Of a stretch of 34,544 bases of DNA, positions 25,494 through 34,544 are shown piece by piece (the first letter of the stretch is position 1; every line of letters begins with the position of its first letter). Source of the stretch: Patescibacteria group bacterium (lineage in GTDB: Bacteria > Patescibacteriota > Minisyncoccia > Sungbacterales > JBBTQR01); contig JBBTQR010000011.1 of the NCBI GenBank assembly GCA_038065595.1, positions 1-34,544 of the forward strand, read 5' to 3'. The translations under genes and the position numbers were made by a program. The notes under the pieces were generated by a model. That model worked only from the letters and a program-made list of their open reading frames with translations, made no database searches and was not told where the DNA came from.

Positions 25494-27065
25494 TCACCTT
25501 TCTTTTGGAGTACGCCAAAAACCCATATATTTCCCAAACATAAGCCGTGTCTGCGCATCAATACCTGGAATTGCGCCAAAAAAGATAATCGTAATCGGAA
25601 GTGAAAACCATTGCACAACAATCCATGTATATGATCGCCATGTGTAATCCTTCGGTAATGGCGGCAAAAGACGCAACGCAACGATAGACGATGAAATAAC
25701 TCCAAACATAGACGCTGTCATAAGAAAACGAGTCATGCGGGGGACATTGTATGAAAGCACGCTCGTATTAAAAATATCACCGCCAAACATAATCGGAAAC
25801 CATCCAAAAAGAAAAATGATGAGCGCGTTGGTACCCCACGACCAAAATCCCTCAAGCTGATTGAACGCAAAACGAAATTTCGTGCGTTTTGGAATTTTTT
25901 TATTTTTCATAAACCCAAAAAACGCATAGGGAATATTTTCTATCCCCCACCCCCAACGCCGTTGTTGTTTATAAATATTTTTTGCAGTTTGTAAAATATT
26001 TTTCCCGACATTGGCGTCCATTGAAACGGGGTAATACAATGGCTCAACCTTCCATCGTCCATCATAAAAAAGAAGCGCTTGCCAAAAAATTCGTGAGTCC
26101 TCTGAAACGATATTTACATGCCAAAAATCCATCTCAACAAGAGCTTTAAACGGCATTGAATGCGATGAAAATGTCGTAAGCCGTTCGGGGCGCGTTTGTT
26201 GCATCATCTGCCAAAATGTACCGGAATACGCAACGATACGCGAAAGACCATGCGCTAACCAAATATTGTTATTGTATACGGGAATCGGTTGAAATGATGA
26301 ATGAAGTGGATCCCGCGTTGTAAGATAATAATACGCCACAATCGCGAAGTATTGAGGGTAAATCTGCGTATCGCTGTCAAGAGATGAAACAATAATATTT
26401 TCGTATGGAATGTTCAGTGGATCAATAATTTCTTCTTTTACTTTCCGCGCGGCATAGGTTTCGTTTGCTCCCTTACCTGAGAGCTCTCCGCCAACCCCAG
26501 ACGGATGATGCGTAACAAGGAATTTAAAAAAACCGCTCTTATATTTCGCCTCAAGCTCCTCGGCGATTTGACGGTCTTGAATTCCGCCCGCTTCTTCCAT
26601 CGCCAAAACCATAATTATCTTCTTCACGGGATATGTTGATTCAAGAATCTTTATGATTGCTTCTTCTATAATCGCCTTTGGTTCCAGAAAACACGGGAGG
26701 ATAACACACTGATACACATCTTCCCACGAAGACGCGTTTAATTCGTTTGTGGAAAGTTTTAATCCGCGCACCCGCTCCATCCAATCAATAGCCATATGTT
26801 CCTTCATTTTTTTATATGAGGCGCGAATATGTATTGAAAAAAATACCGTCTTTAGGAGCCAGTACACATCAAACGCGATTATGAAAAAACTCGCCCATAT
26901 CGGATAGAGCCACGAAAGAATGATAAGTGCAATAAATGTTCCCCAAATTAAAAGCCCCGGCAAAACCTCAAAAAAGCGGTATAAAAAATAATCCATTGAC
27001 CCGCGCGGAAGATCAGTGGCATAGCCGAATTTAAGATAATATTTATTTGCGTCTTCCATATGCAT
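25494..27065 (-). CDS. Membrane-bound processive-type GT2 glycosyltransferase
   Basis: GKGAN, LDSD (DxD), SED and QQRRWGWG (QxxRW); TM helices at both ends. Confidence 0.88.
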   Translation of the reverse strand: MHMEDANKYYLKFGYATDLPRGSMDYFLYRFFEVLPGLLIWGTFIALIILSWLYPIWASFFIIAFDVYWLLKTVFFSIHIRASYKKMKEHMAIDWMERVRGLKLSTNELNASSWEDVYQCVILPCFLEPKAIIEEAIIKILESTYPVKKIIMVLAMEEAGGIQDRQIAEELEAKYKSGFFKFLVTHHPSGVGGELSGKGANETYAARKVKEEIIDPLNIPYENIIVSSLDSDTQIYPQYFAIVAYYYLTTRDPLHSSFQPIPVYNNNIWLAHGLSRIVAYSGTFWQMMQQTRPERLTTFSSHSMPFKALVEMDFWHVNIVSEDSRIFWQALLFYDGRWKVEPLYYPVSMDANVGKNILQTAKNIYKQQRRWGWGIENIPYAFFGFMKNKKIPKRTKFRFAFNQLEGFWSWGTNALIIFLFGWFPIMFGGDIFNTSVLSYNVPRMTRFLMTASMFGVISSSIVALRLLPPLPKDYTWRSYTWIVVQWFSLPITIIFFGAIPGIDAQTRLMFGKYMGFWRTPKER

Positions 27066-27111
27066 CTATACTATCATATTTTTAATTATGAAGCGTTCCA
27101 ATCTCAAAAAT

Positions 27112-27134
27112 AAAAAAGCCCCATGAGCTGGGGC
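27112..27134 (-). terminator. Terminator after pafA
   Basis: GCCCCA/TGGGGC stem with a U-tail on the minus strand. Confidence 0.6.
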
Positions 27135-27140
27135 ATGTGC

Positions 27141-28673
27141 TTAAAAATCCTGTGGCTTTGTAAACCGAGCGAATGGATCATCAAGTACAAAATCAAAACA
27201 GTCTCCGTTATTATCGCGTCCTTTTACAAGGTTCCAATTCATAGAGTCAACACTGCCACCCAACTTCTTTAGATAATCGCAATATTTTCTCCGTGTTTCA
27301 GCGCGAGTTCTGTGTGGCGGATTTTCTTTTGCAAAAGCAACTTCACCTGACGATACAATACGCTCCATTGAAAGTTTTTGAAATATCCCCTGCGTTCGCG
27401 AGAGACGGTGATACTCCAACTCCCAAAACCCTAAGCGCCCACCGACCGTCATCAATTGCAATGAGCCGTCCTTTTTCAAAATCTTAATACAATCATTGTA
27501 AGATGAGCGCCAAGAATATCCGTATTTTTCCATATCACGCAAAATGAGAAATAACTTTGCGGAAACATCCGTATACCTTGCCAATTTTTCATGCGGATTA
27601 TCTAACGCAATAAGATCAAGAATTTTTCGCCACCACTCAAGCGTCCATAAAATATCTGGGGTGCGTTCCGCGTATCCTTTACCCACATACTCCTCCGCAA
27701 GCCCAAGAAACATAAGCTGAAGATCGAGTGCCGAATAATTACCATTAGAAAATTTATAAATCTTCCGAAGTGTCCTATCTCCCGAAAATAGGCTATACGC
27801 ATCCCTCATTTCATCCAAACGATAGATCGGTACTTTGCCATCAAGACACCCATCTTCAATCATCCGGACTATAAGGGCGGTAGTACCAAACTTCAATCTG
27901 CTTGAAACCTCTGCCAGATTAGCGTCACCGCCGACAATATGGACACGATACCACTTATCTGAACGCGCGTGAGACTCATCGCGAGTATTAATAAGCGGTT
28001 TAAACTCCCCCGTTGTACCGCATAAAATCAATTCGCCGGTACCAAGCTCTCTTTGAGAAAGGCGATATTCTGAATGGCCACCCCTCCAATGCACAATTCC
28101 TGATCCCTGCCAAATAATCCGCGAAATAAGATGCACAAGAAGGATGCTCTGAAAATTGGACATTGCGTGGGGTGAACTAACGCTTTCTCTTCGTACAAGA
28201 TGATTCTCGTGCTCACCGTACATATGCCTTCCACAAATATCAATAGAATTTCTATACAAACGAATAATCTCCGCTCCGGGTTTTAAATGTCTTTCCACAA
28301 CATACCCCCTGAGATCGTCCCGTACCTCGCGATCAAATAATTGCGTCCCATCGTTCGTGAAAAGCGCTTGCCAAAGCAGGTCGTTCACTCCTTCAACCGC
28401 ATCAATAAGAATTTCATCTCCCGCTTTCTGCCATATCAGAACATCCCGTGAAGTTTCGCATTCGGGAGACGCATACTCTATATGACTTCCGGTATCCATA
28501 TACAAACGCCCCATATTGGAAAGCCAATAATCGTGTGAAAGAGATTGCCCTTTCACACGCATAAGATACCGAGAAGCACAATCAAATAAAAGTGTCCTAC
28601 TAAAAGGTCTTGAAAGAAAAAAATCTGGACTTACGCCATACTCCTTTTCAAGGCCCTGAATATGCGAGCGCAT
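27141..28673 (-). CDS. pafA: Pup/UBact-protein ligase homolog (PafA)
   Basis: GLEKEYG, GRLYMDTGSHIEYASPEC, YGEHENH, LSQR, PLINTRDESHA, RVHIVGGDAN and C-terminal W...DPF. It lacks the Dop loop. Start taken as ATG 28673. Confidence 0.85.
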   Translation of the reverse strand: MRSHIQGLEKEYGVSPDFFLSRPFSRTLLFDCASRYLMRVKGQSLSHDYWLSNMGRLYMDTGSHIEYASPECETSRDVLIWQKAGDEILIDAVEGVNDLLWQALFTNDGTQLFDREVRDDLRGYVVERHLKPGAEIIRLYRNSIDICGRHMYGEHENHLVRRESVSSPHAMSNFQSILLVHLISRIIWQGSGIVHWRGGHSEYRLSQRELGTGELILCGTTGEFKPLINTRDESHARSDKWYRVHIVGGDANLAEVSSRLKFGTTALIVRMIEDGCLDGKVPIYRLDEMRDAYSLFSGDRTLRKIYKFSNGNYSALDLQLMFLGLAEEYVGKGYAERTPDILWTLEWWRKILDLIALDNPHEKLARYTDVSAKLFLILRDMEKYGYSWRSSYNDCIKILKKDGSLQLMTVGGRLGFWELEYHRLSRTQGIFQKLSMERIVSSGEVAFAKENPPHRTRAETRRKYCDYLKKLGGSVDSMNWNLVKGRDNNGDCFDFVLDDPFARFTKPQDF

Positions 28674-28864
28674 GAAGACATCCCCTCTCTTTATTTTAAA
28701 GATCAATCAATTCGCAAAAGCCATAAAAGCATAGATAAAAAACACTACAAAAGCAACACGCGCGCTAAGTTTCAAATAATGAATACTCCACATTGCTTTA
28801 TTAATAATACTCAAAAAAAATCCGTCCTAAGATTATCAAAGAACGGTATTTTCAATTAACTCAA

Positions 28865-30532
28865 TTAGTGAGGGCATTCATCATCCAAAGACAACCGCTT
28901 TGGAACTTCGCCCGACGACTCGTTTGCTGGCAATGACTTGACTGACGGATATCGAGGCTCAATGCTCGCAATACCACTTCGCATAGCTTCAACGACAAAC
29001 CCTTTCCACGGAAGCAAAAAAAGTTTTTTATCTTCATCGCGCCATTTACAGGTTGGATCAGAAAAAACAAGCGTTTTCTCTCCGTCCAACGGATCCTTCA
29101 GATATATTTTATCCCAATAATTTGAACTTATTATATTCTCCGCGTATGTTCGCGTGGTTTCAACAATAAATCGAGAACGAGTTTTCGGCGTATTCACACA
29201 CGCGCCACCAATCATTCTTTCGGATACAAGTTTTTTTTCTTGCGCGAACGGTGCCTTCGGACCTCTGAAAAAAAGTCCGTCTGTATGGTCGTTGTCATGA
29301 TACAGATAATCGCGAACCGCAACCTCTGCGCTTTTCCACGACTTTCCTGATTTTGCGATATACGCATCAAGCAAATAAAACTTCGTTACCCAATCAAGTT
29401 TTCCATAAAGCGCGGGAAAGTCCTTTTTCTCAAGACAATCGGAAATATCAGAAAAAAATCGCATAAGCAATTTTAAACCTCTTTGTTTCGGATAACGCCG
29501 AAGAATATACTCGCCGAAATAATCCCGATATTTCTGTAAAATATATGTGATACTTCGTTGTTTTGTTGACCCCACAATGTCATATTTTTCTTCAAATTTC
29601 ATATCCCAAGAAACCCTATGAAACGCCGAAACAGGATCACAAAATTCCAGCTCGCGCGGAAATTCATTATCTTCAATCATCATCAGCGCAAGTGAGGTGA
29701 GTCCTATTTTTAGATATTCCGGCAACTGAAGCATATTCGCATCCCCCGCAATCACATGCACGCGACGAAACCGCGAGGGGTCCGCATATGGAACATCGCG
29801 AGTATTGAACAATGGACGATCGTAGGTGGTTTGAGAGCCTTGAAGCGCAGAGAAAAAATCCGCTCGCTGAGAAATCTGAAACTTAACATCATGCGACAAT
29901 AAAGTTTCGTCACACCCAACTTTCCCGGCGCCGATAATAGGGGTCCGCGCGATAAACCACGAACGACCAAGGCATTGCGTGAGACGCTCAAACGGCACAG
30001 CGCGACGGGTTGTATAATTCTCATGGCATCCAAAAGAGCTTCTGCGTTTTGCCACACTTGAGCCTCTCCATTCTTTCGGTTCACCTGCGACATTATTTCT
30101 AAACACACGAAAATGAATTCCACTGGACTCTCTCTGTTTTTTACAAAACGCGTCCACGAGCGCGTAACACGCGCGATTCCAACAAACAAGCTCCCATTCA
30201 CCAAAGCATAACGGCGTTGAAATCTCCAACTGTGATCCATCAAGGTACAGGCGCGCTCCATTTGGGAGCAACATATTTTCCGAATATTTCCATTTTGGAT
30301 CATTAAAAAAATCATGCTCCCGCGCATCTGGATCATCGGCAAGCCGTGAACTTGCGTTCCATGGAATATGCGGATGAGCGGATACAATCCACTCTGGATT
30401 AAATGTTTGAAAAAAAAGACGCCCGCTCAACGACTGCTCGTGTGTCGCTGAAAAAGGATTTGCTACCATAATTCCAAACTCTGTTTCAATTCCGCACGGA
30501 CGATTAATAATCGCGCCCGTTTCATTTTCCAT
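28865..30532 (-). CDS. dop: Pup deamidase/depupylase homolog (Dop), divergent
   Basis: GIETEFG, Dop-loop-like W......D.DAR, LPNGARLYLD, SFGCHENY, GAGKVG, FQISQRADF, NTRD, RRVHVIAGDANM and LDWVTK. ATG 30532 follows GGAGGT. Confidence 0.82.
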   Translation of the reverse strand: MENETGAIINRPCGIETEFGIMVANPFSATHEQSLSGRLFFQTFNPEWIVSAHPHIPWNASSRLADDPDAREHDFFNDPKWKYSENMLLPNGARLYLDGSQLEISTPLCFGEWELVCWNRACYALVDAFCKKQRESSGIHFRVFRNNVAGEPKEWRGSSVAKRRSSFGCHENYTTRRAVPFERLTQCLGRSWFIARTPIIGAGKVGCDETLLSHDVKFQISQRADFFSALQGSQTTYDRPLFNTRDVPYADPSRFRRVHVIAGDANMLQLPEYLKIGLTSLALMMIEDNEFPRELEFCDPVSAFHRVSWDMKFEEKYDIVGSTKQRSITYILQKYRDYFGEYILRRYPKQRGLKLLMRFFSDISDCLEKKDFPALYGKLDWVTKFYLLDAYIAKSGKSWKSAEVAVRDYLYHDNDHTDGLFFRGPKAPFAQEKKLVSERMIGGACVNTPKTRSRFIVETTRTYAENIISSNYWDKIYLKDPLDGEKTLVFSDPTCKWRDEDKKLFLLPWKGFVVEAMRSGIASIEPRYPSVKSLPANESSGEVPKRLSLDDECPH

Positions 30533-30729
30533 TGCACACCTCCACTTTTTTTCAATGAACCTCAACGAACCTATCGGATATTAATTTTAGAGTATCAGAA
30601 TAATTAGATGGAACGCAAGTTGACCAAAGTAAAAATTTTTGCAACGAATACACTAAGAATAGCAGAATAAAGCATTTCAACTGATACAATAAGCGGTTCT
30701 TTTATAATTTTTACAAAACAGGAGGAGCG

Positions 30730-32043
30730 ATGTTCAAACCGCCAAGCGACCTTGCTGATTATTACGCCGTTGTTGCGCCAAGCACCATTGATAGTGAGTT
30801 TATGATCAGACCGTCAAAGGCTGATGGCGTGTATCTATGGGAAGGCAATAAAAAATACATTGATTTTGACGCGAGCGTTGCGACTGTTCCTTTGGGACAC
30901 AAACACCCACTCGTGAATGAGGCGATTTTTAGACAATTAGATACGGTTGACTCGGTAGAATGTTCCGCGCGACCTCCAAAATTTTTTATTACCGTTGCCA
31001 ACCGTGAATATGAAATATCTCCAGAAGCATTAGGACGAAAGCTTCTTGATTCCATATTTCCAAACGAAAACGCTCGAGTCATCTATGGAGTTACTGGAGC
31101 AGAAGGCGTTAATATCGCGGTAAAATTTCTTTTGTACCAACGGCCACGGAGGCGAAGGTTTATTGCTTTTGAAGGCGCATTTCATGGACGAAAAGGATAC
31201 GCGCTGGACCTTACACTTTCAAAAGCTGAACAAAAACGGTACTACCCGACAAGCGGTATCACAGTGCTTCACCTTCCGCTCCCTAAAAAATTAGAAGATG
31301 TTGAACGAATCAAAAACATGCTTGCGCGATATCCACTTGATGAAGTAAACGCGATTTTTGTTGAAGCAATTCAAGGCGAAGGCGGAATTGAAGTTTTTGA
31401 TACAAAACTATGGCACATGCTCGCGCCAATTCTTGAAAAAAATAAAATTGCCATTGTTGCCGATGAAATCCAATGCGGTATAGGACGCACGGGCAGTATG
31501 TGGGGATTTCAATTGATTGATATACATCCCGATATTGTCGTGGCGGGTAAAGGACTTGCAAACGGCACCCCAATAAGCGTTGTTGCGTATAAGCGGAAAC
31601 TTGAAAAAAAGCTCCTTACAAATGGATGGGATGCCGGAACATTCCCAGGGCATCCAACAGCGCTCGCAGCAGGAACAATAACATTTTCTATTATTCAAGA
31701 AGAAAAAACACATGAGCATATACTGGAAATGAGCAAATATCTTTCGCATAAACTTGAATTTGCCATTCCTAAAAAATACGATGGCGAAAATCATTATTGC
31801 GTCTTAAAGGGCGCTGGACTTATGCAAGGAATAGAGTTTCGCAATTTTGATGATACGCCCGACCCAAAAACCCGTGAAATCGTATTGCGCGCAATGAAAA
31901 ATTGGGGGATACTCACTATTCCATGCGGACACTCAAGCATTAACCCGACAATCCGCCTTCTTCCGCCCTATCTCATTCAAAAAGAACACATTGATAAGCT
32001 TATCAACTGTCTATGCGAAATATTTTCATCGTTAGAAAAATGA
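30730..32043 (+). CDS. Class III PLP-dependent aminotransferase (ArgD/GabT-like)
   Basis: TGAEG, AFHGR, EAIQGEGG, DEIQCGIGRTG, AGKGL (PLP Lys) and GTF. Extended -10 TGATACAAT (30682-30690); SD AGGAGG. Confidence 0.9.
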   Translation: MFKPPSDLADYYAVVAPSTIDSEFMIRPSKADGVYLWEGNKKYIDFDASVATVPLGHKHPLVNEAIFRQLDTVDSVECSARPPKFFITVANREYEISPEALGRKLLDSIFPNENARVIYGVTGAEGVNIAVKFLLYQRPRRRRFIAFEGAFHGRKGYALDLTLSKAEQKRYYPTSGITVLHLPLPKKLEDVERIKNMLARYPLDEVNAIFVEAIQGEGGIEVFDTKLWHMLAPILEKNKIAIVADEIQCGIGRTGSMWGFQLIDIHPDIVVAGKGLANGTPISVVAYKRKLEKKLLTNGWDAGTFPGHPTALAAGTITFSIIQEEKTHEHILEMSKYLSHKLEFAIPKKYDGENHYCVLKGAGLMQGIEFRNFDDTPDPKTREIVLRAMKNWGILTIPCGHSSINPTIRLLPPYLIQKEHIDKLINCLCEIFSSLEK

Positions 32044-32133
32044 CCTGTTAATAATTTCTGTAGTTAAGTTTTCCGCAAAAAATTATATTACTTATTTCTC
32101 ACTACTGAAAATAGCCAAAACAAAAAAGAAAAA

Positions 32134-32165
32134 GCCGCGCACTCGCTAAAAGCGAAATGCGCGGT
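32134..32165. terminator. Hairpin between convergent genes
   Basis: GCCGCGCA...TGCGCGGT with inner TCGCT/AGCGA, flanked by A-rich and T-rich sequence. Confidence 0.65.
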
Positions 32166-32196
32166 TATTTTTTACCAAATAATTCTAAATTAAAAC

Positions 32197-34041
32197 TTAA
32201 AGATAGTGGCCAGGGGTAACAGTTTCAACTATTTTTACTTCTTCAAGTTCCTTCCTTCTATCCGAAACCAGCGAGCGAATATGCACCACTTTTTCGCCAA
32301 TGCTCTGCATATCAAGCCAGCGTTGGGCATCTTCGCTTGTATTGGGAAGGTCTTCGGTCTCTGCCATTTCCTGTTCAATGGCAAGGCAAAGATCGCGAAG
32401 CATAACGCCACTGTGCTCAAGACCGCGTGAAACGACTCGTTCAATTATATTTCGTTTAGCACGATTTACGATATTTTCAAGCATAGCACCAGAAACAAAA
32501 TCTTTGAGATAGAGCGTGCGCTTACCACCACCCTGAAGCGTTAATTCAAGAATGCTATTACGCACAGTAACCCTGTGGCCATCTTCACGCATATAGAAAT
32601 ACTTTTCCTCATCAATTGCCCACAATCGTTTAACGGCTCCATCAATCAGGTATTCTATAACAGCTGTCCGTTCACCCTTAAAAGCGTCATACTCCGGCTT
32701 CCATAACGCATCTTTTGGGTCAAGATATTTCTTATGCAGTGGAATTTGTTTCTTCGTAAGGTACACGCGAAAAATTTCTTTCGCGCCTTCCAGATCAGGA
32801 CGGATAATTTTTATTTTTCTATCAACGCGTCCAGGCCGTAAAACCGCCGGATCAATAAGGTCCTGGCGATTAGAAGCAATGAGTATAAGCACATTTTTCA
32901 TTACATCAACGCCGTCAAGCTCTGAAAGAAACTGCGCGACTGCTGTCATCTCAACATCAGAAGAAATCCCTGTCCCGCGCGTTCTTAAAATCGCATCGGC
33001 TTCATCCATAAAAATAACGACGGGACATTGTTCAGTTGCTCGTTCTTTCGCGCGCGCGAACATTTCACGGATTCGTCGTTCAGTTTCACCGACGAATTTA
33101 TCAAGAAGCTGTGGACCCTTCACATTGATGAAGTACCCTTTCACTTCTTTCGTGTTGTGCGCTTCGGCGAGTTTTTTAGCGATGTGCCAAGCAACCGCTT
33201 TAGCAATAAGTGTTTTTCCGCATCCGGGAGGGCCATAGAGAAGAATGCCCTTCACCATTTCCGCACCATATTCAACAAAAAGATCCTTGTGGAGAAACGG
33301 CATTTCAATTTCTTTGCGAATACGCGAAACCTGATCGCGAAGACCTCCAATCTGCGAATATTCAATAGGCTTCACTTCTTCAAGCCAGAGCTCTTTATTT
33401 TCGGTTTTTTCAAGGCACTCAAGAATAATGCCCGAGTTCAGATCGCATAAAAGCTCGTCTCCGACGGAAAACTTCTTATCAGAGAGCGCGCCAGCAATCC
33501 CAAGAACGCGTTTTTCGTCATGATCAACGGTTACACGAACACGCGAAAGATCAATAACAGAATCAACCGTACACACCTTACCGTGTTGTTCTGGCAATCC
33601 AACGCCAACAATCGCGTTTAATTCGTTCAACAGCACTGCAACGCCCGGCACTAAATCTTTGCGCACTTCCTGCACCGGAGAAAAAACCCGCATACGCTGA
33701 CCCCTCACCATTACATCAACCGTTTCCTTTTGAAGACTTATCACGGTCGCATAGTTTTGTGGAGGCGCGGTAAGAAGCTCAATTTTTTTCTCAAGCTCTT
33801 TGGCTTTTGTCATTAATTCAGCGAACTTCCCGCGTGTCCGCAAATAAAATTCGCCCAAACCAGAAAGCTCTCGTTTGGCGTATACAATTTTATCTGAAAC
33901 AAGTTTTAACTCGGCATTCAAATCTTTTCCTAAAACTTTTTCGTTATTACCGATAATATATTTAAGATGATTTGATTGCTCAATAAGCGTTTCTGAAATC
34001 TCGTTTAAAAGGTCGTCAAAACCTCTCGCTTTCTCTGGCAT
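32197..34041 (-). CDS. arc: Proteasomal AAA+ ATPase ARC/Mpa
   Basis: N-terminal coiled coil, two OB-like domains, GPPGCGKT, KFVGETER, FMDE, RTRGTGISSDVE, SNRQDLIDPAVLRPGR, SGAMLENIV, EDLPNT and C-terminal GHYL. Confidence 0.93.
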   Translation of the reverse strand: MPEKARGFDDLLNEISETLIEQSNHLKYIIGNNEKVLGKDLNAELKLVSDKIVYAKRELSGLGEFYLRTRGKFAELMTKAKELEKKIELLTAPPQNYATVISLQKETVDVMVRGQRMRVFSPVQEVRKDLVPGVAVLLNELNAIVGVGLPEQHGKVCTVDSVIDLSRVRVTVDHDEKRVLGIAGALSDKKFSVGDELLCDLNSGIILECLEKTENKELWLEEVKPIEYSQIGGLRDQVSRIRKEIEMPFLHKDLFVEYGAEMVKGILLYGPPGCGKTLIAKAVAWHIAKKLAEAHNTKEVKGYFINVKGPQLLDKFVGETERRIREMFARAKERATEQCPVVIFMDEADAILRTRGTGISSDVEMTAVAQFLSELDGVDVMKNVLILIASNRQDLIDPAVLRPGRVDRKIKIIRPDLEGAKEIFRVYLTKKQIPLHKKYLDPKDALWKPEYDAFKGERTAVIEYLIDGAVKRLWAIDEEKYFYMREDGHRVTVRNSILELTLQGGGKRTLYLKDFVSGAMLENIVNRAKRNIIERVVSRGLEHSGVMLRDLCLAIEQEMAETEDLPNTSEDAQRWLDMQSIGEKVVHIRSLVSDRRKELEEVKIVETVTPGHYL

Positions 34042-34169
34042 AAAAACCTCCCTATAAAAAAGTTAGCGAAAAGAATTATTGTAAAAGAATAAAAACATAC
34101 TATACTCAAACCGCTAAAAACACAACTAGACCACACTTTTACAATAATTCAAAAATGCGCTACAACTAT

Positions 34170-34178
34170 TGATATAAT
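34170..34178 (+). promoter_or_regulatory. Extended -10 promoter for the tRNA locus
   Basis: TGATATAAT ends 16 bp before the outer tRNA 5' end. Confidence 0.6.
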
Positions 34179-34194
34179 AATTCAAAAATAGCAA

Positions 34195-34432
34195 CCGCCC
34201 ATAGCTCAACGGTTAGAGCACCGAGCTTACCAACGGCAACGAATAAAAAGTAAAACAAAATAGACGCTCTCGGTCCGTAGCTCAACGGCAGAGCAGTCGT
34301 CTTATACACGACCGGTTGTAGGTTCGAATCCTACCGGACCGAGAGCGAATATTTTGAATTTTATTTTTTGCGAGTGAACCGTTGGCACGAAGTATACCTC
34401 GGGGGTTCTTGGTTCGAATCCAAGCGGGTGGA
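34195..34432 (+). tRNA. Interrupted tRNA-Ile(UAU): 5' part 34195-34227, 165-nt insertion 34228-34392, 3' part 34393-34432
   Basis: The joined halves give a cloverleaf: acceptor CCGCCCA/CGGGTGG (one G:U, one A:C), D arm GCTC/GAGC, anticodon arm CCGAG-CT|TAT-AC-CTCGG, T arm CTTGG-TTCGAAT-CCAAG, and A73. Confidence 0.82.
34271..34342 (+). tRNA. Intact tRNA-Ile(UAU) nested inside the insertion of the outer tRNA
   Basis: Acceptor CGGTCCG/CGGACCG, anticodon arm GTCGT-CT-TAT-AC-ACGAC (anticodon 34303-34305), T arm GTAGG-TTCGAAT-CCTAC, and A73. Confidence 0.92.
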
Positions 34433-34506
34433 CTTTGTTAATTTATCTGGCGTTTCTGATTCAAGTTTAGAAGGAATATTAAAATAAAACTCCCCAGAGC
34501 ATCAGA

Positions 34507-34523
34507 GCAAAGCCCCGAGGTAT
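34507..34523. repeat. Partial second copy of the REP-like element (GCAAAGCCCCGAGGTAT)
   Basis: 17/17 identity with 19227-19243; the left arm is degenerate. Confidence 0.65.
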
Positions 34524-34544
34524 CGTCAGGAATCGCTTTTCGCC

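Follow-up and report, generated by a model that had tools for sequence, protein, structure and literature searches.

The window analysed here is the whole of a 34,544-nucleotide (nt) contig, C11, from a Patescibacteria group bacterium whose genome, G000, comprises 699,755 bases in 38 contigs and is 94.65% complete; in size and gene content it resembles a CPR/Patescibacteria genome. Near the end of the window a gene for tRNA-Ile(UAU) is interrupted in its anticodon loop by an insertion that holds a second, intact tRNA-Ile(UAU) gene. This nested tRNA does not stand alone: the pattern is widespread in Patescibacteria and undescribed, and its probable cause, in our view, is a mobile palindromic element that brought a tRNA-Ile(UAU) as a replacement and broke the resident gene within the anticodon loop, at TTATA. 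The nested anatomy, an uninterrupted relative, a dispersed and mobile core of the element, the constant presence of an intact tRNA copy and the one-sided decay of the outer gene are demonstrated below.

The proposed course of events is as follows. A non-coding palindromic element, similar to a miniature inverted-repeat transposable element or a repetitive extragenic palindrome (REP), would insert at TTATA in the anticodon loop of the tRNA-Ile(UAU) gene, of which the host has a single resident copy, and would bring with it a complete tRNA-Ile(UAU) gene at its hairpin tip. The inner tRNA would then be transcribed from the promoter of the resident gene within a long precursor, it would be excised by RNase P and a 3' nuclease and it would receive its CCA afterwards, while the outer halves would be an unneeded relic. 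The insertion would be tolerated because the passenger tRNA replaces the broken gene, and thereafter it could not be lost. That the element is in this sense a natural parasite which breaks and replaces an essential single-copy tRNA gene, and is irremovable once it is in, has in our view about an even chance of being right. The features of the locus are listed here.

34079-34106, + strand: promoter-like site (TTGTAA, 16-nt spacer, TATACT), a consensus match about 90 nt upstream of the outer tRNA
34195-34227, + strand: 5' half of the outer tRNA-Ile(UAU), i.e. acceptor 5' strand, D arm, anticodon stem 5' strand, C32 and U33 (fold; alignment A1 with the same-family locus L034)
34201 and 34425, 34197 and 34429, + strand: A7 mismatched with C66, and G3 paired with U70, in the outer gene (sequence)
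34228-34229, + strand: TA assignable either to the outer 5' half or to the insertion (junction ambiguity)
34228-34392, + strand: insertion of 165 nt (2-nt TA ambiguity), i.e. 5' arm, inner tRNA and 3' arm, equal to the gap of alignment A1 exactly
34230-34270, + strand: 5' arm, with stem strand CCAACGG (34230-36), motif CAACGAA and an A-rich strand paired to the 3' arm as far as the inner acceptor stem (fold, motif scan)
34271-34343, + strand: inner tRNA-Ile(UAU), discriminator A, CCA not encoded, the only UAU tRNA called in the genome (ARAGORN, Rfam)
34344-34392, + strand: 3' arm, with a U-rich strand, motif GCGAGTGAA (34370-78), stem strand CCGTTGG (34379-85) and a short GAA-looped tail (fold, motif scan)
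34393-34432, + strand: 3' half of the outer tRNA, i.e. TATAC, anticodon stem 3' strand, variable loop, T arm, acceptor 3' strand and A73 (sequence, fold, alignment A1)
34482-34544, no strand assigned: unrelated repeat at the contig end, outside the nested tRNA, 98% identical to C13:103-165

The inner gene was called by ARAGORN as tRNA-Ile(tat) at 34270-34343, and the Rfam tRNA model places it at 34271-34342 with 69.7 bits. The outer gene was read from the sequence: its halves pair at 5/5 positions of the anticodon stem (CCGAG/CTCGG) and at 6/7 positions of the acceptor stem (CCGCCCA/CGGGTGG), with G3.U70 among the pairs and A7.C66 mismatched, and together they also supply a D arm and a T arm. 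Once the insertion is deleted, the outer loop reads CTTATAC and is identical to the inner loop. The insertion divides into the 72 nt of the inner tRNA and a non-tRNA part of 93 nt, the arms of which are imperfect complements with no exact inverted copy. In the minimum free energy (MFE) fold, 34195-34433 forms two nested cloverleaves joined by a long connecting stem (-95.4 kcal/mol, z = -7.06), and none of 200 shuffled sequences was as stable. The initial annotation had proposed the nested tRNA-Ile(UAU) together with its coordinates and stem pieces, and our calls, reading and fold bear this out; the hairpin stem CCAACGG/CCGTTGG and the other stem pieces that it named are all present in the MFE fold. 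The TA at each junction, and a register after U33 in which the insertion has a terminal G (..GAAG followed by TATAC), were likewise found as it described them.

When ARAGORN was run with introns of 0-400 nt allowed, as the same annotation had suggested, it called the inner tRNA and left the outer gene uncalled; the set of 37 tRNA genes in the genome stayed the same. A genome scan with RF00005 found no other half-tRNAs in G000. The promoter scan found 2 consensus sites where 1.2 are expected, and the site at 34079-34106, upstream of the outer gene, is the sole candidate start for a transcript that includes the inner tRNA. Of the earlier suggestion that a single precursor gives rise to two isoacceptors, one part can be retained, in that both tRNAs probably lie on one precursor, since the only promoter-like site is upstream of both; that both tRNAs work is unsupported.

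The state of the locus before the insertion can be seen in relatives. The same-genus relative G001 has no match to the tRNA locus, and the nearest empty site was therefore taken from the same-family relative G002, where an uninterrupted tRNA matches the outer halves at 64/74 positions (own count) and the upstream flank is partly conserved (alignment A1, locus L034). The gap in the alignment of G000 with G002 is exactly the 165 nt. This uninterrupted relative of the outer halves indicates that the outer gene is the ancestral resident gene.

The part of the insertion that is not tRNA probably belongs to a wider class of sequences. In most insertions of this kind the core has the same order: a junction-side stem, GA-rich motifs around a mini-helix, a variable hairpin and a second small hairpin ahead of the 3' junction. 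The junction-side stem varies in sequence and keeps its pairing, and the two GA-rich motifs enclose a covarying mini-helix of 2 bp. Among 19 cores without cargo, 90.8% of the cells are paired, as opposed to 72.5% after shuffling and 31-46% after sliding, and 20/23 core pairs have changes on both sides. We do not take these covarying stems as proof of an RNA function, as inverted repeats in DNA yield the same signal. A covariance model of the core, which we call R1, finds 1-14 copies in each of 37/62 genomes of the order; G000 has 5. For 25 of the 30 best R1 copies there is no tRNA within 400 nt; four lie beside a tRNA-Ile(tat) and one lies near a tRNA-Pro. The model also matches 16 nested loci elsewhere, across their tRNA (139-157 nt). 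With regard to side observations, head-to-tail tandem pairs of the hairpin element occur at L148:949-1088, L156:1501-1648 and L067:614-751, and a crude count of open reading frame (ORF) context gave no orientation bias of the dispersed copies relative to genes.

One filled site outside the tRNA genes is in smc. In G000 a copy of the hairpin element lies antisense and in frame within this gene (L162:1501-1569, i.e. G000:C19:17558-17626) and adds 27 codons; the encoded protein has 756 aa, and the gene carries an insertion of 81 nt. The smc genes of G001 and G002 are without it, and there the query residues 1-353 and 379-756 are contiguous. This copy is a fresh insertion, and the R1 core family is thus dispersed and mobile at the DNA level. 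TTTAT is found at both junctions of the smc insertion and TA or TATA at the tRNA junctions; these could be target-site duplications or, equally, an element end that mimics its target. The TTATA...TATAT...ATATA features of the tRNA-linked elements are present in the dispersed copies as well, so the pairing at the junctions that resembles an exon-intron border is a property of the element rather than an adaptation to tRNA. A count in fixed columns of 38 distinct dispersed copies gave 26 G.T and 23 A.C mismatches, and such equality is as expected of a DNA palindrome rather than of a selected RNA.

The insertion of the window appears to be a diverged member of this family. It shares the family motifs in a loose, self-designed motif scan (stem CAACGG/CCGTTG, CAACGAA.., ..GCGAGTGAA, the 2-bp mini-helix and a GAA-type tail), and its 3' arm matches the 3' arm of the nested locus L012 at 18/22 positions by our own count. 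Its arms resemble a subfamily of nested loci such as L012 and are unlike the five dispersed copies of G000, and its membership is suggested by these motifs together with the likeness to nested loci that R1 does recognise.

In order to see how common such loci are, we read 29 distinct tRNA-Ile(UAU) loci from relatives of the same order; 12 have an interruption of the same kind, or remains of one, and 17 are plain. We then scanned 185,579 species, each represented by a single genome, for the pattern of a tRNA-Ile 3' half beginning with TATAC and lacking U33 in front of it. The pattern forced A or G at the end of the intron and required neither an intact tRNA nor an outer 5' half. It returned 92 stretches, nearly all titled Patescibacteria, Paceibacteria/Parcubacteria or Saccharibacteria. 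An intact tRNA-Ile(tat) lies just upstream on the same strand in 88 of the 102 matches examined; chance hits (8), contig edges (5) and an ordinary tRNA with an unusual loop (1) make up the remaining 14. In each of the 88 real loci the interrupted gene is accompanied by an intact tRNA-Ile(UAU), either within it or next to it. In 64 distinct loci the intact tRNA lies between candidate outer halves, and L103 and L021 are triple nests that resemble Russian dolls. Across loci the inner tRNA occupies one of two alternative places, at the tip of either hairpin of the element, and by our own reading the cargo tRNAs of many loci share the flanking dinucleotides GT before and AC after.

A comparison of the two tRNAs within each locus suggests which of them works. 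The inner or adjacent tRNA-Ile(UAU) is intact in all 88 real loci. The decay of the outer gene was counted in the 64 unique loci in which ARAGORN calls a tRNA-Ile(tat) between the candidate halves: after removal of the insertion in silico the outer gene is uncallable in 9 of them, where its 5' half is beyond recognition, and in 27/64 loci one or more positions of the outer acceptor or anticodon stem are mismatched. A7.C66 and G3.U70 in the outer gene of the window both correspond to G-C pairs in G002, and G3.U70 is the identity mark of alanine tRNA. The asymmetry, i.e. that the outer gene decays and the inner one never does, is our main argument that the inner tRNA is probably the working gene and the outer gene a relic; the outer tRNA is probably not made. 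G000 has 37 called tRNA genes with none for Asn or Tyr, two with CAU and one with UAU; some of its tRNAs may be unassembled. As there is no second UAU tRNA, only two CAU tRNAs and only a sub-threshold match to the TilS family, the inner tRNA is probably the sole reader of AUA in this genome. G000 also encodes RNase P RNA. At G000:C34:9045-9108, about 30 nt from tRNA-Ile(GAU), a weak match to tRNA (26.4 bits, below the cut-off) could be a damaged or unusual tRNA.

There are also signs that the insertion travels as a cassette. The pairs of loci quoted here are among those listed in a pairwise table of 36 unique loci (score at least 14, insertion at most 185 nt, no N). In L091, titled Saccharibacteria, and L098, titled Taylorbacteria, the inner tRNA is identical (75/75) and the arms agree at 66/72 positions, whereas the outer tRNAs are 61/73 identical, with perfect stems in each, and the similarity breaks right at the junction. 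As judged from these sequences, the cassette seems to move between hosts; mis-binning could inflate the taxonomic distance and would not explain the differing outer genes. In the window the identity between inner and outer tRNA is 0.73, and the best matches of the inner tRNA are in other families (92% to G007 and G035). A Y1 (IS200/RAYT-like) transposase gene, whose product is a candidate for mobilising the element, is found in 46/62 genomes of the order, G000 included (RAYT, REP-associated tyrosine transposase). The G000 gene (L174:68-763, within the stretch L174:42-796 on C33, 231 aa) scores 33.4 bits with Pfam, above the cut-off, and 37.4 bits with NCBIfam REP_Tyr_transpos, below the cut-off of 80. 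It has its own 27-nt palindrome on both flanks and a third copy within the frame; these are the only 3 copies in G000, and the palindrome differs from the hairpin element. Several genomes have a tRNA-linked element and no Y1 match. Given the different palindrome and the imperfect co-occurrence, a link of the REP-RAYT kind to the element is unestablished.

Several of our results weigh against a mobile element with a replacement tRNA. Element copies that bear a tRNA were seen only within tRNA-Ile loci, so the transport of the cargo itself was unobserved, and no transposase could be tied to the hairpin element. The insertion of the window reaches only 4.3 bits with R1 (E 2.2, filters off) and is not scored as a member of the family. 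Outer genes are callable in 55/64 loci and have perfect acceptor and anticodon stems in 37/64. In the pair L058/L066 the outer tRNAs are identical at 73/74 positions while the arms agree at 78%; this conservation may reflect purifying selection, with gene conversion from a near-identical inner copy or a recent re-invasion as alternatives. Finally, the fixed-column count in the 19 tRNA-linked cores, whose sequences are related, gave 22 G.T and 8 A.C mismatches, a weak hint of a constraint at the RNA level. A first wobble count, made on the MFE folds of the 36 unique loci, had given 62 G.U against 5 A.C and was discarded since such folds favour G.U; the fixed-column count was used instead.

The callable outer genes with their intact stems, the pair L058/L066 and the excess of G.T over A.C would all suit a true intron, in which an enzyme, or the chemistry of the hairpin itself, cuts the hairpin out of the outer pre-tRNA, so that one transcript gives two tRNA-Ile(UAU), the inner one released by RNase P and a 3' nuclease and the outer one by splicing. 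By our own reading the TATA repeats of the element can moreover pair with loop nucleotides on both sides of the junction, and some outer genes have further hairpins in the D or T loop and yet keep their stems. However, the same junction pairing is found in the dispersed copies, the same core lies between genes and in frame in smc, where removal is unneeded, and no gene with the intron alone exists among the 88 real loci; the outer gene of the window itself has the A.C mismatch and G3.U70. The machinery is also missing from what we searched. The tRNA-intron endonuclease (PF01974, EndA) was found in 0/62 genomes of the order, G000 included, with a positive control in 4 archaea. RtcB was not found in G000 and is present in 6/62 genomes; among the 13 genomes with interrupted loci it is full-length only in G017, with one sub-threshold fragment in addition. 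No ligase of the Rnl type was found in G000. As for ribozymes, the group I intron core (Rfam Intron_gpI) has no match at E up to 10 in 34100-34544, the six-domain group II ribozyme, of several hundred nt, has no Rfam match and the insertion is only 165 nt, 7 related loci whose insertions have no cargo gave no Rfam ribozyme or intron at E up to 5, and the Rfam searches at gathering and E-value thresholds gave only tRNA and hairpin-like noise. The 5' splice register common to all loci can only be after U33 or U34. A U before the insertion and a G at its end occur in one register of the window (CT, then the insertion ending in ..GAAG, then TATAC), while most family members end in A, at a place where the scan pattern forced A or G. 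No bulge-helix-bulge was evident by eye at the exon-intron borders in the fold of the window. Likenesses to the hammerhead, the hairpin ribozyme, the K-turn and the bulge-helix-bulge, all seen by eye only, were dropped as unconvincing. We therefore consider a true intron unlikely, and just as unlikely the bolder statement that a hairpin element of 70-165 nt which spreads as DNA also serves as a bacterial tRNA intron of a new class, whose removal needs neither group I/II chemistry nor the archaeal endonuclease. The initial annotation was right that this is no group I or II intron and that the hairpin outside the inner tRNA is too small to hold any known ribozyme core. Its idea of a novel intron type is not supported, given that the core is a dispersed DNA repeat, an intact tRNA is always present, outer halves decay and no known splicing enzyme was found, and its fallback, an outer pseudogene or integration scar, fits better. 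DNA contigs that skip the insertion have no bearing on splicing: contigs that join 34227 to 34393 exist in other organisms, with a shorter side of only 26 letters, and we rejected them as evidence since they come from uninterrupted tRNAs of those organisms.

A different origin of the inner tRNA would be local, i.e. a cargo-less element split the gene first and the intact copy arose on site at the hairpin tip, by repair or duplication from an intact allele. The identity of 0.99 between inner and outer tRNA in 10 of 43 loci (those with a score of 14 or more) would suit this, as would the confinement of tRNA-bearing copies to tRNA-Ile loci and the use of either of two hairpin tips. In the window, however, the inner-outer identity is far lower, the inner tRNA finds its best matches in other families while the outer one matches G002, the loci L091 and L098 have a common cassette in different outer genes, and the cargo tRNAs of many loci share their flanking dinucleotides; we regard local origin as improbable. 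We give a still smaller chance to a functional scaffold, in which the tRNA-in-tRNA fold aids processing, stability or regulation of the inner tRNA and the outer one is never made. The very stable fold would agree with it, and so would compensatory changes that, by our own reading, keep the junction stem even as they alter the outer loop (CC/GG in the window, TA/TA in the family). On the other hand tRNA-Ile(UAU) genes are plain in 17/29 loci, the outer 5' half is lost or broken in 9/64, and element copies remote from tRNA genes have these stems as well. That two tRNA loci were joined by an artefact of assembly or binning can be practically dismissed. It is true that the contig ends 112 nt downstream within a repeat and that the assembly is in 38 contigs, but the region 33900-34519 is covered by one separately assembled contig from each of two runs, X1 (15183 nt), possibly the source sample, and X6 (4500 nt), which is not flagged as the source, both with 0 differences, which also disposes of the chimera that the initial annotation had named as a risk. 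Moreover, the arms are imperfect complements and the same architecture is present in 64 distinct loci of other assemblies. The mobile element that carries a replacement tRNA is thus the reading that we retain.

It is useful to compare this element with known systems. Rickettsia palindromic elements (RPE) and the Correia elements of Neisseria are short, non-coding palindromic repeats dispersed in small genomes; RPE sit in frame inside protein genes and Correia elements at TA-rich targets. The hairpin element is alike in being a short, non-coding, dispersed palindrome that is found in frame, in smc, or at a TA-rich target. We know of no RPE or Correia element that carries a tRNA gene or splits the tRNA gene that it replaces. 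REP and REPIN elements with RAYT, and the IS200/IS605 elements, are hairpin repeats as well. Here the resemblance extends to the Y1 HUH transposase-like gene in most genomes of the order and to an orientation that is apparently fixed by a short target word, TTAT; the palindrome around the Y1 gene of G000 is the point of difference. Integrase islands at tRNA genes are kilobases long, encode the integrase and restore only the 3' part of the gene. As with these islands, a tRNA gene is the landing site and a working tRNA is kept; in contrast, the insertion is 165 nt long, brings a whole second gene and encodes no protein.

The closest parallel that we found is in a Lak megaphage of Prevotella, where one predicted tRNA is contained in an insertion that interrupts another in its anticodon region; the insertion was treated as an intron (Devoto et al. 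2019, PMC6784885). Both cases have a tRNA within a tRNA anticodon insertion, and alleles with and without the insertion (PMC6784885). The phage case differs in its Prevotella phage context, its tRNA and its anticodon, and the part of the report consulted mentions no dispersed repeat family, no target motif and no rule of an always intact partner (PMC6784885). We found no description of a break-and-replace tRNA element of this kind in the literature, the Lak phage case being the nearest. Bacterial group I tRNA introns likewise are insertions in the anticodon loop, with a U before and a G at the end, as in one register of the window (Williams 2020, bioRxiv 10.1101/2020.01.27.920355). However, the present insertion differs from them in having no catalytic core or Rfam match, a non-tRNA part of 93 nt and, in most members of its family, no terminal G. 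Archaeal bulge-helix-bulge introns, for which intron transposition and split tRNAs are described (PMC10714607), are similar as far as the consulted text goes in using several tRNA positions (anticodon, D and T loops), in long helices that join the halves and in mobile behaviour. They differ in that our host is a bacterium and that the splicing endonuclease is found in none of the 62 genomes. In addition, the 5' side reads CTTACC in the window, which rules out the 37/38 position.

If the proposed break-and-replace mechanism is true, it would be a selfish strategy for which our literature searches gave no precedent, whereby a tiny non-coding element breaks the sole copy of an essential tRNA gene and supplies the replacement. 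The host would first tolerate and then depend on the element, and repeated invasion would build Russian-doll tRNA genes. Only tRNA-Ile(UAU) would be hit because its loop spells the target of the element, TTATA. A horizontal replacement of tRNA genes across Patescibacteria would be indicated as well. Should the outer tRNA be spliced after all, this would mean a new route of RNA processing in bacteria. For annotation there is a practical caution, since such loci can be mislabelled as intron-bearing tRNAs or missed. The R1 family is a new dispersed structured repeat of genomes of the candidate phyla radiation, and it can occupy essential genes, smc for example, without breaking the reading frame.

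Some smaller observations concern other hairpins in tRNA-Ile genes. Outer tRNA-Ile genes can have extra short, GC-rich hairpins in the T arm (L018, L042) or in the D loop (L055, L126, L131). A second type of insertion starts with CCCGCC, can hold a tRNA-Ile(UAU) and is placed after CTTA or in the T arm. The loci L036, L041, L021 and L011 are also among the outer tRNA-Ile genes with other hairpin insertions. The anticodon loop of a tRNA-Ile(tat) call at L101:2312-2385, normal in other respects, is CATATAC, in which A replaces the universal U33.

The surroundings of the locus in the window can be described briefly. The 63 bases at the contig end (34482-34544) belong to a second repeat family, weaker copies of which lie at the ends of C9, C3, C29 and other contigs or close to them, and this repeat probably explains why the assembly stops there. 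The genes near the locus encode a proteasome-type (ARC/Mpa-type) AAA ATPase (32197-34041, minus strand), two proteins of the Pup-ligase family and RecG. Within 25494-34041 the Pup-ligase pair, the AAA ATPase and an unassigned ORF of 523 aa are clustered and form a pupylation-type system in a genome of 0.7 Mb.

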